A stretch of DNA of 38,743 nt from assembly GCA_964488715.1 (NCBI GenBank), contig CAZAVD010000004.1, positions 1 to 38,743 on the forward strand, in the 5' to 3' direction. A program made the position numbers and the translations under genes. This stretch comes from an uncultured Gammaproteobacteria bacterium. Lineage in GTDB: Bacteria; Patescibacteriota; Patescibacteriia; UBA2196. Within the stretch, counting starts at the first letter, position 1. Every line of letters begins with the position of its first letter. Below the pieces are notes generated by a model, which saw nothing but the letters and a program-made list of their open reading frames with translations, was not told the origin of the DNA and made no database searches. Shown here one piece after another: positions 1 to 19,446 of the stretch.

Positions 1-57
1 TGAACTTCTCGCTATCGCTCGACCACGCTGCGCTCTCCTCCTTTCAGTCGTCGGGTC

Positions 58-171
58 GTCTAACAGCGATTAAGAGGAAAATCCTTGCAGGATTTTACCC
101 AAATTGAATTTTTGGAGGTCGCTAACGCTCCACTCTCAAAAATCCAACTTCTCTTAATCGCGATGTTATGT
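58..171. mobile_element. attC-like (integron cassette-type) recombination hairpin
   Basis: GTCTAAC (RYYYAAC) at 58-64 and GTTATGT (GTTRRRY-like) at 165-171. Stem TAACA-GCGATTAAGAG (61-76) pairs with CTCTTAATCGC-ga-TGTTA (151-168), leaving 2 extrahelical bases. Two internal hairpins at 78-96 and 104-147. Confidence 0.6.
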
Positions 172-175
172 GAAA

Positions 176-651
176 TAATTTTTAGCGACCCCATAGAATA
201 ATTTATAAAATCTAAGCGATAAATATCCATTATGAGAGAAACTTCTGCATTTGAAAAGTTGGCAACTTCCGCATTAAATGTTTTCTTTGTTTTAATCATA
301 TTCTTACCATTGTACTTTTTAGTTGATGATATTTTTACAAAGAAACTCATATTGATAGGAATATTTTTTGGTTACAACATTATATTTCTCTTATTCAATC
401 AAAATAGATGTTTAGGAATGATGATTATGAAAACCAAATATGCCAAAAAATATTCAAAGTCACAACATTTCATTTGTTCAGTTTTATATACACTAAGTTT
501 CTCAACTTTATTATTTTGGATATTCTTTCCATTTGATTTATTCTTGTTCAATATGTTGCTGATTCAGTTACCAATAGTAATTCTCAAGAAAACAACATTA
601 CATGGATATTTATCTGGAAATATCACAACAGTGACGGGTCGCTAAAAATTA
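176..651. repeat. 16-bp perfect inverted repeats bracketing the RDD-like gene (cassette boundaries)
   Basis: TAATTTTTAGCGACCC (176-191) and GGGTCGCTAAAAATTA (636-651) are exact reverse complements. Confidence 0.85.
232..645 (+). CDS. Small integral membrane protein, RDD-family-like (cassette gene)
   Basis: 137 aa with 3-4 hydrophobic segments. N-terminal 'TSAFEKLATSALN', central 'CLGMMIMKTK' and C-terminal 'TLHGYLSG' resemble degenerate RDD motifs. Confidence 0.6.
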   Translation: MRETSAFEKLATSALNVFFVLIIFLPLYFLVDDIFTKKLILIGIFFGYNIIFLLFNQNRCLGMMIMKTKYAKKYSKSQHFICSVLYTLSFSTLLFWIFFPFDLFLFNMLLIQLPIVILKKTTLHGYLSGNITTVTGR

Positions 652-1537
652 CTTGCTCCGTTTCACTCTGAAAACTTCTTTTATCCCAGATATTATCAAA
701 ATTTTCTTTAATCACAACACACTCAAATCTCTCTAAAATATATTTTAATTTTTTCCAAGTTTTTTTAGTATTATAATATTTAATAATTTTTTTTAACCTA
801 GGCATTTTAATGTCTGGTTTTTTTTGTAAATCGTATGGATGAAAGTGGAGACAAGCTGATTCAGTTTTTAATTTGTTTTTTAATAAAATTTTATAAATCC
901 ACCACGGAATAATACGAATATAAATTCCTCCAGTTAAAGGCAGTTTAAATCTGCCATAATGATAGACAGAAAGAGGAAATTCCACTAAATTATTATAAAT
1001 TTTATATGGAATAAATTTATCACTTTCTACGCCATATGAACTATTTTTATAAATTTTTTTAATTATTTTAGGAAATTGATAGGGAAATATGGAAGAGTCG
1101 TATTTAATATTGTTTTTTTCTAAAATTTTTAAAGCCCATTTTGTTTTATTATTTAAAGAAAAATTTGGCGCCCGATATCCAATTGGTTGTTTATTAATAA
1201 TTTGAAATATTTTATTTTTTAATATTTTAATATCATTATCAAGTTTTTCAGGAGTAATTTTATATAATGGCTTGTGATCCAAAGTATGAATTGCAATTTC
1301 ATGTCCAGCTTTATTTATTTTTTTAATTAATTCAGGTTCTTTATCTAAAACCTTACCACTTACAAAAAAAGTTGCTTTAGCATTGTATTTGTTTAATAAA
1401 TTTAAAAATTTATGTGTAAAATCAGACAATGAGTCTTTTTCATTGCCTGTTAAATATGACCAAATTGAAGGTGATTCATACCAATATTCAAAGTCTATTG
1501 TTAGAAAAATTTTATTTTTATTATTTTTCACAAACAT
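623..1537 (-). CDS. Polysaccharide deacetylase (CE4/NodB; DUF3473-associated type)
   Basis: Motifs LTIDFEYW, KATFFVSG, GHEIAIHTLDH, GYRAPNFS, YDSS and HFHPYDL. ATG at 1537, overlapping the upstream gene, is preferred over GTG at 1561. Confidence 0.88.
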   Translation of the reverse strand: MFVKNNKNKIFLTIDFEYWYESPSIWSYLTGNEKDSLSDFTHKFLNLLNKYNAKATFFVSGKVLDKEPELIKKINKAGHEIAIHTLDHKPLYKITPEKLDNDIKILKNKIFQIINKQPIGYRAPNFSLNNKTKWALKILEKNNIKYDSSIFPYQFPKIIKKIYKNSSYGVESDKFIPYKIYNNLVEFPLSVYHYGRFKLPLTGGIYIRIIPWWIYKILLKNKLKTESACLHFHPYDLQKKPDIKMPRLKKIIKYYNTKKTWKKLKYILERFECVVIKENFDNIWDKRSFQSETEQVIFSDPSLL

Positions 1538-2240
1538 AAAATTGCCTAATACTAAATTCACTTATAAATCTAAATATTTTTTGTAATTTATTTATTATTT
1601 TTTCCACAAAATTTTGTAAAAATTTTGGACCTAATGGAAACAAAAAATCTGCTTTATGTAAAATCAATTTAAACCCAGAATCTGAAATTATTTTTTTCAC
1701 AGTTTTAGAAGCTAAAAATTTATGTGGGCCTTCACCGTGATTTGTAAATAAAAAATTATATATTTTTAAAAAAGGCTCAGCAGTTGATGGAGGCAAGCTC
1801 ATTACTAATCTAGATCCAGGTTTTAATACTCTATAAAATTCATTAACTAATTTTTGTGGATTTGGAGTATGCTCTAAAGTTTCTAAAGATAAAATTGCAT
1901 CAAAATGATTATCAGAAAAATTTAAATTTTCTAAATCAGTTAAATCAAATTTAGCATCTGGGAATTTCTTTCTAGCTTTTTCTATAAATTTAGGTGAAAC
2001 TTCTAAATTATAAATATCTAAATTTTTATTTTCTTTATTTAAAAATTTAATAGCATTACCAGTGCGTGACCAAATATTTAAAATTTTATTATTAGATTTT
2101 AAATTTAAATATTTAATACTTTCTAGATATCGTTGATAATGAGCATCGCCAATATTATTATTAATATCATCATATTCATCTACAGCACTATCCCAAAAAT
2201 TTGATATTTCCTGAATTGTAAAGTTATTATTGATTTTCAT
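1521..2240 (-). CDS. Class I SAM-dependent methyltransferase (Methyltransf_11-like)
   Basis: FWDSAVDEYD N-terminus, LEVSP, FSDNHFDAILSLETLEH and EFYRVLKPG. Motif I is atypical (LNIWSRTG). Confidence 0.8.
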   Translation of the reverse strand: MKINNNFTIQEISNFWDSAVDEYDDINNNIGDAHYQRYLESIKYLNLKSNNKILNIWSRTGNAIKFLNKENKNLDIYNLEVSPKFIEKARKKFPDAKFDLTDLENLNFSDNHFDAILSLETLEHTPNPQKLVNEFYRVLKPGSRLVMSLPPSTAEPFLKIYNFLFTNHGEGPHKFLASKTVKKIISDSGFKLILHKADFLFPLGPKFLQNFVEKIINKLQKIFRFISEFSIRQFYVCEK

Positions 2241-2896
2241 TAATTTTTAAATTTCTTAACAAATTTTTTATCTAATAATTTATTTAAAATTTTTTTCTTA
2301 ATAATATTTGGCACTAAATAATAAATTTTAATTAAAATTCTTTTTAACCAAATAACACTTATATTTATTTTTTCAACAGGCCAATCTGGATTAAATTGAT
2401 TATAATTTATTATTTCAGATAAATTATATTTTCTTGACATATTTTGTAATTCATTTTTTGCATAACCAACTAAAACATAAGAAATAGGGGAGAAGTATTT
2501 TGGAATATTAAAAATTTTTCTTATATCTTTTTTCTTTGGCAAATGACATACCCAACAAGTTCCTAATCCTAAATCAACAGCAGTTAAATTTAAATTTTGA
2601 ATTGCTGCTGCTGCGCTTTGAATATAATCATAATAATCTAAATCTTGCGTGCGATTATCATATAAAACTAAAATCCCAACTGGCGCATTTTTAATTACAA
2701 TAGAACCACCTTGATCAACTAATTTATTTTTTAAATCATCTTTATCAACAACAATAAATTTCCAGCCTTGAATATTACAAGCTGAAGGCGCATAAGTAGC
2801 AGAAGAAATTAATTTTTCAATTAATTCTTTTTCAACAGGTTTATCTTGAAAATTTCTAATACTGCGTCTGGATTTTATTGCATTTTGTAGTTCCAT
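2240..2896 (-). CDS. Nitroreductase family flavoprotein with C-terminal extension
   Basis: RRSIRNF, APSACNIQGWKF and AAAIQNLNLTAVDLGLGTCWV motifs. Confidence 0.92.
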   Translation of the reverse strand: MELQNAIKSRRSIRNFQDKPVEKELIEKLISSATYAPSACNIQGWKFIVVDKDDLKNKLVDQGGSIVIKNAPVGILVLYDNRTQDLDYYDYIQSAAAAIQNLNLTAVDLGLGTCWVCHLPKKKDIRKIFNIPKYFSPISYVLVGYAKNELQNMSRKYNLSEIINYNQFNPDWPVEKINISVIWLKRILIKIYYLVPNIIKKKILNKLLDKKFVKKFKN

Positions 2897-2910
2897 AAAA
2901 ATAACTAGAA

Positions 2911-3801
2911 TTAACTTGATTTTTTATTTATCTCTCTTCTTAAAGCAGCAATTTGATCAGCCATTAAACCAAAAAAGAAAATTAAAATTGAAGTTATTAA
3001 AATAAAAATTGTGCCTTCTGAAATATTTAACAAAGTTAAATCATAAATTAAAAAACCAAAACCAATTAAAAACAAAATTAAACTAATTGGAAAGAAAATT
3101 CTTAGCGGTGAAAAAAGCATAATTAAGCGTAAAATCAACATAAAATAAGTAACTGCATCTTTAAAATTAACTTTGCTCTTTCCGCCATCGCGTTTATTAA
3201 TTTTTACAGTCACAAATTTAACATTTAATTTTTCTTTAAGAAAAGCAAAAATACTTGTAGTTGAACAAGAAAATCCATCTGGATATAAATGCGCAAATCG
3301 CAAAAATTCATTGCGTTTAATTAATCTCAAACCACAATTAAAGTCTTTGACTTTTTTTCCTAATAAATATCTTGCCAACCAATGAATAACTTTTTTACCT
3401 GGCTGACGGATCCAAGGCCCTTGATAACCAACTCGTTCACCAGAAATTAAATCATAATTATCTGTATATTTTAACAAATCACTAATATAATCTACATTAT
3501 GTTGACCATCAGCATCAAATGTTAGAATCCAATCATATCTTGCAGATCGCGCTCCAGTTTTTAAAGACGCCCCATAACCCTTATTGTATGGGTGATTAAT
3601 AATTTTAATCCCGAATAGCTGAGGATTACTAATAATTTTTTTAGTGTTATCTGTTGATGCATCATTAACTACAATAATTTCAAAACTTTCTAAATCTAAA
3701 CTAGATAATTTATTTTTTAAATCACTTATAACCTGTTGAATATTATATTCTTCATTATATGAAGGAATTATGATTGAGATATTTTTTGTATTATTATTCA
3801 T
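2911..3801 (-). CDS. GT2 glycosyltransferase (DPM/GtrB-like) with two C-terminal TM helices
   Basis: ISIIIPSYNEE, IVVNDASTD, NKGYGASLKTG, FDADGQH and DFNCGLR motifs; hydrophobic C-terminus. Confidence 0.92.
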   Translation of the reverse strand: MNNNTKNISIIIPSYNEEYNIQQVISDLKNKLSSLDLESFEIIVVNDASTDNTKKIISNPQLFGIKIINHPYNKGYGASLKTGARSARYDWILTFDADGQHNVDYISDLLKYTDNYDLISGERVGYQGPWIRQPGKKVIHWLARYLLGKKVKDFNCGLRLIKRNEFLRFAHLYPDGFSCSTTSIFAFLKEKLNVKFVTVKINKRDGGKSKVNFKDAVTYFMLILRLIMLFSPLRIFFPISLILFLIGFGFLIYDLTLLNISEGTIFILITSILIFFFGLMADQIAALRREINKKSS

Positions 3802-18348: not shown

Positions 18349-19446
18349 ATGAAAATTCTAATCATCCATGATAGATTTCAATTTAGAGGCGGAGCAGAAC
18401 GCCTTGTTTTAATTATGGCAAAAGCTTTAGATGCAGACATCTTAACTGAATTTTGGATTGATGGCGAAACTTTTGATAAATCAGAAGTTGATAATAAATT
18501 ATTTATTTTAGACAAAGATGACCCAAACATTATGGCTTGGAGATATTTTCGTGCACAAAAAAATTTTATTTTAAAAACTAGAAAAATAATTAAAAATTAT
18601 GATTTAGTAATTTTTTCTGGAAACAACTGTTTATCTACTTCTATTCATCTTAAAAAAAATCAAAAACATTTTTTATATTGCCATTCTCCAGTTAGACATG
18701 TTTTTGATTTATTTAAAAAATTTAGATCAGAACAAAAAAATATATTAAAAAAAATATTTTATTACAATATCGGCGCTTGGGGAATTAGAATTATTTATTG
18801 GCTTGGCTTATCTAAATTTAAAACAGTTATTGCTAATTCCAAAAATGTTCAAAATAGATTATTAAAATATTGTAGAAAAAAATCTGAAGTTATATGGCCA
18901 CCAATTCAAACTAATAAATTTAAATGGATTGATCAAAAAGATTATTATTTATCTTTTGGTAGAGTTGATAAATTAAAAAGAGTTCACGATATTGTTAAAG
19001 CTTTTCAACAAATGCCAGATAAAAGATTAATTGTTTCTAGTGGCGGAGATGATTTAGAAAATATAAAAAATTTAGCTAAAAATTATGACAATATAAAAAT
19101 TTTAGGCTGGGTTGAAGATAAAGAATTAAAAAATTTAGTTGGAAATTGCATTGCTCCTATTTATCTTCCAATTGATGAAGATGCTGGGATGGTTCCTTTG
19201 GAAGCTAATTCTGCTGGAAAACCAGCTATTATAAATTATGATGGGGGATTTAAAGAAATTATTCAAGATGAAGTTAATGGTAAATTTATTCCTAAAAATT
19301 ATAGTATTGAAGAAATAAAAAACGCGGTCAAGTGGATGTCTCCAGACCGCGCAATGTTGATGAAAGATGCTTGTGAACAACAAGCTCAAAATTTTTCAGA
19401 ACAAAAATTTGTTATAAAAATTAAAAAAGTAATATGGAATTTATGA
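18349..19446 (+). CDS. GT4 glycosyltransferase
   Basis: GGAERLV, YCHSPVR, IANSKNV and EDAGMVPLEANSAGKP (EX7E). Confidence 0.92.
   Translation: MKILIIHDRFQFRGGAERLVLIMAKALDADILTEFWIDGETFDKSEVDNKLFILDKDDPNIMAWRYFRAQKNFILKTRKIIKNYDLVIFSGNNCLSTSIHLKKNQKHFLYCHSPVRHVFDLFKKFRSEQKNILKKIFYYNIGAWGIRIIYWLGLSKFKTVIANSKNVQNRLLKYCRKKSEVIWPPIQTNKFKWIDQKDYYLSFGRVDKLKRVHDIVKAFQQMPDKRLIVSSGGDDLENIKNLAKNYDNIKILGWVEDKELKNLVGNCIAPIYLPIDEDAGMVPLEANSAGKPAIINYDGGFKEIIQDEVNGKFIPKNYSIEEIKNAVKWMSPDRAMLMKDACEQQAQNFSEQKFVIKIKKVIWNL

Follow-up and report, generated by a model that had tools for sequence, protein, structure and literature searches.

What are an integron-like hairpin and a single small gene doing at the very start of a contig from the Patescibacteriota? 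The stretch analysed here (the window; C4:1-38743, 38,743 nucleotides) belongs to a genome of 865 kb on 77 contigs. Its first positions hold a folded site resembling the attC recombination sites of integrons, a gene, and the remnant of a second such site. We conclude that window positions 1-698 are most probably the far end of an array of integron-like gene cassettes, and that this array is probably served by a short tyrosine recombinase, encoded on another contig (C26), which groups as a sister of the integron integrases (IntI). The evidence includes a family of covarying sites that tile arrays of accessory genes in one orientation, cassette ends that are complementary to each other, a recombinase that groups with IntI, and the position of that recombinase beside the arrays.

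A folded site and its cassette

A preliminary description of the window, made from its letters, had pointed to an attC-like hairpin with an RYYYAAC core, a GTT core and two internal hairpins, to a 16-bp inverted repeat enclosing one small membrane gene that ends, with its stop codon, within the right arm, and to a damaged second copy of the hairpin. All of these are present. The complete attC-like site occupies positions 54-176 on the forward strand, as do all features given below unless stated otherwise. It opens with the R″ core GTCTAAC (58-64), followed by one unpaired A (65) and the 5′ arm of an inner stem (66-76), seen in the sequence and in an inverted-repeat search. The variable loop contains a hairpin at 78-96, the motif CCCAAAT at 98-104 and a second hairpin at about 104-147. 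AACTTC (146-151) then leads into the 3′ stem arm (151-161), the unpaired bases GAT (162-164), the R′ core GTTATGT (165-171) and GAAAT (172-176). The inner stem is complementary at 11 of 11 positions, with one unpaired base on its 5′ side and three on its 3′ side. Folded as DNA, positions 40-200 reach −26.3 kcal/mol (z = −4.52), and none of 200 shuffled sequences is as stable.

Directly after R′, as in other cassettes, lies the left arm of an outer stem (173-191), whose right arm is found at 636-654. The two arms form an inverted repeat of 19 nucleotides at 95%, within which 176-191 and 636-651 match exactly (16/16). The open reading frame (ORF) enclosed by them (232-645) encodes a hydrophobic protein of 137 amino acids, and its TAA stop codon (643-645) falls in the right arm. 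The earlier label 'RDD-like' for this gene is not sustained, as the protein matches no Pfam family at E ≤ 0.01. Taking the crossover to lie at GTT and the ends of a cassette to be complementary, we would place the bounds of this last gene cassette at 166-692, from the TT of R′ up to the base that opens the terminal core, which is A where other sites have G.

The terminal site (655-698) is truncated. It comprises an R″-like remnant (661-675), which is complementary to the left end of the cassette, then ACTTC (674-678), a 3′ arm (679-688), GAT (689-691) and the core ATTATCA (692-698). Repeat searches, a profile and comparison with other copies all recover it: 673-696 matches 146-169 at 75%, 674-696 is 91% identical to C57:1-23, and an nhmmer profile from five copies matches 657-698 (E = 0.0033). 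Having lost the 5′ stem arm and the entire variable loop, this site cannot fold.

A family of sites that tile gene arrays

A plain hairpin scan was too unspecific in this AT-rich genome (784 candidates), and a covariance model, R1, built from seven short copies of the hairpin, was used in its place. The window site is among its seeds and scores 80.4 bits, while long-loop copies are under-scored, such as two sites on C26 at about 28 bits. The genome holds 12 full and 5 partial copies, the full ones on five contigs only; across all 865 kb, R1 detected no family member outside those five contigs, a match on C2 (E = 0.8) being taken as chance. On C57, C43, C59 and C26 the same layout recurs, in which a gene is followed by a hairpin (AAC core, covarying stem, variable loop, GTT core) and then by the next gene. 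Over the 12 full copies, 90.6% of stem cells are paired, against 25-46% when the partner is slid. Compensatory changes on both sides occur in 8 of 15 stem pairs, and none of 500 shuffles reaches the observed covariation.

The sites share a common pattern. Each opens on the 5′ side with an RYYYAAC core, has an inner stem of 11 bp that covaries and encloses a variable loop, and closes on the 3′ side with a GTTRNNY-GAAAT core. Among 62 sites, AAC is kept in 60 and GTT in 53 (ATT in five), with TT in all 62. Short blocks (CATC, TAT/ATA, GG, CCCAAAT, ACTTC and GAAAT) are conserved across families. The unpaired stretch between core and stem is one nucleotide on the 5′ arm and usually four (RAAC) on the 3′ arm of the 62 sites. 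Of 46 well-paired sites, 25 have exactly these 1-nt and 4-nt spacers and 33 show the constant 3-nt excess. This excess on the 3′ arm of the coding strand corresponds to the canonical bottom-strand geometry. The family thus carries the RYYYAAC and GTTRRRY cores and the paired L boxes of attC sites. Canonical attCs further possess a central spacer of 5-6 nucleotides and extrahelical bases near L″, according to the accessible text of PMC5027507; these unpaired features, including the 2-3 extrahelical bases, are not found in the present sites.

Every R1 match lies on one strand within its locus (65/65), and 15 of 16 array ORFs of this genome are co-directed with the sites. R1 sites are present in 79 of 150 same-class relatives and in 30 of 150 genomes from a separate, even sample of the phylum. 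Cassette content is accessory, including GNAT acetyltransferases, MazG, methyltransferases and transporters, and 7 of 16 ORFs belong to no family. One GNAT cassette is 76% identical to a cassette in an array of a genome from another family, whereas the two core proteins compared between these genomes are only 51% (Adk) and 52% (Map) identical.

The preliminary description had named three observations that would speak against a cassette array: a single-copy hairpin, other copies that do not bracket variable genes, and synteny of the membrane gene with the neighbouring deacetylase in relatives. The copy number and the orientation of the sites run contrary to the first two. As to the third, such synteny was not found: the 137-aa protein has one real homologue (40% identity, in G139) among the 150 relatives and none in 12 same-family genomes.

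Cassette ends that match each other

If cassettes are exchanged at the GTT triplet, the two ends of one cassette should carry matching halves of a site, even where a gene lies between them. This is the pattern in 49 cassettes. The four variable nucleotides of R″ match R′ at the left end of their own cassette at 3.02 of 4 positions, perfectly so in 22 of the 49. Against the R′ of the same hairpin the value is 1.94 of 4, which is also the value for all other pairs. We read this own-end matching as the footprint of crossover at the conserved GTT. Whereas the 3-nt excess has the canonical bottom-strand geometry, the tiling of the arrays and the own-end matching locate the crossover at the 3′ core, which is also its place in canonical integrons, and either strand may be the one that recombines.

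The complementarity of cassette ends does not stop at the cores. The preliminary description had suggested an extension beyond 7 bp for the window cassette, and this proves to be general: the first and last 160 nucleotides of a cassette reach a median score of 30, mismatched ends one of 18, with 30 of 45 cassettes above the 95th percentile of mismatched pairs and 23 of 45 above the 99th. These outer stems run from right after R′ to right before R″, with symmetric offsets and lengths of up to about 70 bp, and often abut start and stop codons. The 16-bp inverted repeat of the window is one case of such a general, cassette-specific outer stem. Outer stems would stabilise the folding of an excised circle or bring flanking sites together; alternatively, they might pair in the transcript. 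To our knowledge, they are not a described feature of integron cassettes, and they may be relevant to the folding of circles or to the way in which cassettes arise.

Two kinds of unusual unit were seen in the arrays. Mini-units without an ORF consist of R′ and GAAAT followed, after 13-42 nucleotides, by their own complement ending in an R″-like box, and are thus 'empty' cassettes made of an outer stem alone. They occur on C43 (locus L003, 3958-3995 and 4560-4600), upstream of position 18453 in locus L061 of genome G009, and in locus L045. On C57 (locus L001, 945-1740), a cassette gene of 160 amino acids and higher GC content is inverted relative to the array and flanked by inverted repeats of ~75 nucleotides; it is the sole opposite-strand gene among the 16 array ORFs of this genome.

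A short, probable sister of the integron integrases

Two tyrosine recombinases are encoded in the genome. The one on C5 is XerC/D-like and follows a cell-division gene. The other, a short protein of 277 amino acids (C26:3856-4689), is divergent from the array and lies 3.8 kb from the overlap between C26 and the window. It scores 223.6 bits against the integron-integrase model TIGR02249 (cut-off 265), with model positions 180-236 unmatched, and slightly more, 232 bits, against the XerA model NF040815 of NCBIfam (cut-off 220). Marker genes put the completeness of this genome at 100%, and none of its proteins exceeds the integron-integrase cut-off.

The best solved relative of the C26 recombinase is the Vibrio integron integrase VchIntIA (2a3v), which its N-terminal half resembles most; the solved XerA 4a8e gives 154.7 bits. 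In an alignment with 11 canonical IntI-like proteins, the motif LRVQDIDFEQ, a KGxKDR block, the catalytic residues HxxR/H/Y and a tail reading KSPL are common to all. The difference lies in the IntI-specific insert, where 17 residues of the query stand opposite 60 in VchIntIA: all 11 canonical IntI-like proteins have the insert, and none of nine short recombinases does. Because this domain is missing, the C26 recombinase is, by its sequence, not a canonical IntI. Among the proteins sampled for a tree, with six Xer proteins of Patescibacteria as its root, the nine short recombinases come out as sister to the 11 IntI-like proteins, and the node uniting the two clades has 100/100 support. At E ≤ 1e-20 the protein family numbers more than 7,000, from Patescibacteria sources, named tyrosine recombinase, XerD or 'integron integrase'.

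The preliminary description had reported no integrase in the window. This is correct for the window itself, but the likely integrase lies on C26, a contig that it did not see. Its further suggestion of a distinct Patescibacteria cassette system turned out to be the better half of its guess, because the recombinase lacks the IntI-specific domain.

Across G009, G071 and G024, the short recombinase is 77%, 60% and 53% identical, compared with 46%, 40% and 47% for Adk and 64%, 47% and 52% for Map. Between families it is thus more conserved than Adk in all three genomes and than Map in two of the three, which suggests strong constraint or horizontal spread. Disrupted orthologues occur in genomes that still have arrays, one interrupted by ~1 kb (G089:C18:122103-123933) and two with in-frame stops (G148:C1:171642-172418 and G022:C5:5423-5932).

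The recombinase adjoins the arrays

Orthologues of the short recombinase (48-77% identity, 270-280 amino acids) adjoin co-oriented R1 sites and diverge from them. The linked loci, in G071, G024 (two loci), G089 (where the gene is interrupted), L030/G009, L033 and L045, are all those with enough upstream sequence. When presence of the recombinase is scored at E ≤ 1e-50, it is found in 60 of the 150 same-class relatives: 50 genomes have both site and recombinase, 29 the site only, 10 the recombinase only and 61 neither. Since the surveyed genomes share kinship, no p-value is attached to these counts. In several of the genomes with the recombinase alone, its gene stands where a contig begins.

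A further element accompanies the recombinase. In nine of nine loci with at least 290 nucleotides upstream, an R″-like box is followed, after 2-3 nucleotides, by GTTRNNN-RAAAT, mostly 57-130 nucleotides upstream of the start codon (~355-385 in G024 C33). This conserved core would act as the insertion site, attI. Beside 13 loci with more distant recombinase relatives, 12 of them full-length IntI-like genes, R1 found no sites, which sets the site family apart, in its sequence, from anything flanking those genes.

On C26, read in the orientation of the window, the recombinase points away and is followed by the attI-like core and then by four cassettes, counted through into the window: a 110-aa ORF, a 180-aa ORF, a three-gene unit (methyltransferase, QueF-like protein and Vut_1 transporter) and the 137-aa ORF of the window. 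The join is probable. Window 1-55 is the exact reverse complement of C26:1-55, including two bases that differ in other copies; further copies, of lower identity, match window 3-65 at C57:3040-3102 (96.8%) and window 1-65 at C43:2109-2176 (88%). Position 1 of the window is a contig end, so the array looks cut off there. Arrays of this repeat break assemblies, as at the window start. Among public metagenomes, as assembled contigs, the window sequence occurs in eight runs, all marine or seawater and from two studies, and two of these may stem from the source sample; in the four runs compared, summed contig depth over 1-55 is 20-40 times that over 201-3000. The window cassette had been described as the last unit of a cassette array, and by virtue of the 55-base overlap with C26 this is probable.

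Locus L033 (7660-8825), where a 62%-identical short recombinase neighbours an R1 site, belongs to a 1.39-Mb scaffold titled as an archaeal metagenome-assembled genome (MAG). Mis-binning, mislabelling or cross-domain spread could account for it.

How cassettes might move

We propose that the short recombinase, a sister of integron integrases without the extra domain, would bind the folded hairpin and exchange strands at the conserved GTT/AAC triplet. Recombination between sites would excise a cassette as a circle, which could then be re-inserted at the attI-like site. In the circle the two cassette ends would meet and lengthen the hairpin by an outer stem of up to about 70 bp. For the window cassette, this stem would be formed by 173-191 with 636-654, whereas in the array the gene separates the two halves. 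The window cassette itself is probably fixed in place, because its last site has lost one arm and reads ATT.

Weighing the explanations

Several points weigh against an array served by the short recombinase. The domain that defines IntI is absent from this protein, and 29 of the 79 site-bearing relatives have no recombinase at the threshold used. The sites have an asymmetric loop of 1 versus 4 nucleotides, a geometry unlike that of canonical attCs, and for this reason a folded single-strand mechanism can only be inferred. The tree contains no archaeal XerA, and the union of C26 with the window depends on 55 overlapping bases. Moreover, both full sites on C26 and the terminal site of the window read ATT and not GTT; with three of the four array sites so altered, this array may be inactive. 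Within 1.5 kb of the G139 gene homologous to the 137-aa ORF, R1 finds no site (best E about 1). Neither a 165-to-692 joint nor a circle junction occurs in the assembled contigs of the four metagenome runs, and no recombination event was seen. Short-sided joints of 22-23 letters, 183-to-644 (X1) and 180-to-647 (X7), with undefined letters between their sides, were indistinguishable from repeats of other organisms, and nothing is drawn from them.

Could the enzyme instead be a Xer-like protein acting on double-stranded, dif-like sites, at which elements have become stacked? Elements that exploit Xer, and plasmid pdif modules, provide the comparison. A protein that passes the XerA cut-off (232 versus 220 bits) without the IntI insert would suit this explanation, as would the attI-like core, a short two-arm inverted site. 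We nevertheless judge it unlikely. A double-stranded two-arm site has no need of stem arms that covary across 60-200 nucleotides of unrelated loop. A housekeeping Xer would be near-universal and act at a single site, whereas the short recombinase is patchy among relatives (60/150), coexists with a separate XerC/D-like gene in this genome (G000) and in all five other genomes checked, and is found with many sites per genome. Its clade is sister to IntI and not to the sampled Xer proteins.

Two other explanations appear very improbable. The cassettes might be ordinary ones whose canonical IntI acts in trans, from elsewhere or from an unassembled region, with the short recombinase being unrelated. 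The relatives with sites and no short recombinase fit this, as do cores that conform to RYYYAAC/GTTRRRY, but a genome complete by its markers offers no protein above the integron-integrase cut-off, the short recombinase is adjacent and divergent in eight of eight flanked loci, with the attI-like site in nine of nine, and R1 is blank beside the distant, mostly full-length IntI-like relatives. There is equally little chance that the hairpins are non-mobile palindromes merely lying between genes, such as terminators or regulatory hairpins of the repetitive extragenic palindrome (REP) or miniature inverted-repeat transposable element (MITE) type. They are indeed intergenic and fold strongly, and outer stems set tightly around ORFs would also pair in a transcript. 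Such palindromes would not be expected to be confined to arrays, to face one way in 65 of 65 cases or to be linked to a recombinase; complementarity of a cassette's own cores is expected from site-specific exchange only, and no terminator-like site was detected in window positions 1-800.

Relation to known systems

An integron-like array with a short recombinase invites comparison with classical integrons as set out in the accessible text of Nivina et al. 2016 (PMC5027507). Shared with them are a tyrosine recombinase divergent from the array beside an insertion site, cassettes of one orientation, each with an imperfect hairpin at its end, RYYYAAC and GTT cores, a stem whose structure is more conserved than its sequence, variable terminal structures, and a variable half of R′ that belongs to the next cassette. 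Unlike classical integrons, the present system has a recombinase without the IntI-specific domain, a 1 × 4 asymmetric loop in place of the central spacer, strongly conserved blocks within the site and cassette-specific outer stems. Further, Patescibacteria are absent from the host phyla given in the accessible parts of PMC9024848 and PMC9668308.

Archaeal integrons (Ghaly et al. 2022, PMC9668308) are similar, as far as the accessible text goes, in deriving from MAGs of small-celled lineages, in mostly consisting of arrays without a detected integrase and in having attI next to intI. They differ in that the IntIs of archaea reportedly retain the additional domain, which is absent here. Work cited in the accessible part of the same paper reports this domain to be necessary for IntI activity.

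The short recombinase resembles archaeal XerA and bacterial XerC/D in its length of about 275 amino acids, in its domain layout and in passing NF040815. Unlike these, it is patchily distributed, coexists with a separate Xer, lies beside hairpin arrays and groups with IntI over the sampled Xer proteins. Xer recombinases can act on single-stranded hairpin substrates, as in the integration of CTX phage, which would be a precedent for an enzyme without the IntI domain working on folded single-stranded DNA. The phage case involves a single attachment site, whereas here there are cassette arrays with an attI platform.

Has such a system been described before? A search of published literature for integrons or attC sites in Patescibacteria (the candidate phyla radiation, CPR) found none by title and abstract among the matches listed, with subscription journals and the supplements of integron surveys (PMC9024848, PMC9668308) outside its scope. 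The accessible parts of PMC9024848, PMC9668308, PMC10661359, PMC5027507 and PMC11386340 likewise make no mention of one.

We speculate further that this is a phylum-wide integron lineage of the Patescibacteria, whose integrase is sister to all IntI and either never had the IntI domain or lost it, whose folded site is differently built, and whose cassettes each have an outer stem of their own, restored only once the cassette is an excised circle. We hold this broader proposal tentatively, regarding it as slightly less probable than its opposite. Integrons are defined by an IntI with its extra domain, and a widespread IntI-sister system without that domain would widen the definition. Such a system would also bear on the origin of integrons from Xer-like recombinases and offers a natural comparison for the role of the extra domain. 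If the proposal is true and the short form is ancestral, this lineage shows integrons as they were before IntI gained its signature domain. It would also represent a dedicated gene-capture device for reduced, host-dependent bacteria. In the tiny genomes of Patescibacteria, a cassette platform would be a main route by which accessory genes are gained and shuffled, here including acetyltransferases, nucleotide pyrophosphatases, methyltransferases, transporters and many unknowns.

The window start and the array ends

Upstream of the complete site, window positions 1-55 form a GC-rich conserved stretch, the right end of a preceding cassette that probably continues on C26. In three of the cassettes in this genome, a block of this kind, ~55 nucleotides long, separates the outer-stem arm from R″ (window 1-55; C57:3040-3092; C43:2120-2166; C26:1-55). 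The block carries CTCCTCCTTTC, which resembles the 3′ end of 16S rRNA, and has no partner across the hairpin. In other genomes, similar GC-rich stretches with GCTTCGC-type loops stand ahead of R″. An rRNA end or intron, suspected from the GC-rich bases, was dropped, as there is no Rfam family at gathering score.

Other functional elements were sought around the array. The window and the three array contigs gave no Rfam match at gathering score; at E ≤ 10, window 1-800 gave five chance-level snoRNA matches (E 1.6-9.5). No tRNA or tmRNA was found in the window or in the array contigs. A promoter and terminator scan did not exceed expectation, either at the window start (six found against 4.3 expected in shuffles) or in the spacer between recombinase and array (two against 2.5).

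The genome has at least two array ends and one short recombinase. The second array end, on C43 (L003, 4384-4810), abuts the core genes adk and map, and its last site also reads ATT. In the window, the first non-cassette gene encodes a polysaccharide deacetylase on the reverse strand (623-1561; Pfam PF01522 and PF11959). The Pfam matches end at residue 285 of 311, as does the match to a homologue in the same-family genome G009, and the last ~26 codons, beyond the Pfam domains, run through the attC remnant. In G009, 14 kb separate the deacetylase homologue from the recombinase; the homologue has the opposite relative strand and is not found at the array end, which is uninformative. The minus-strand gene run continues beyond it with ORFs (1521-2896 and 2911-3801) that are glycosyltransferase-, nitroreductase- and methyltransferase-like by the look of their translations, suggesting that the array ends at a surface-polysaccharide gene cluster.

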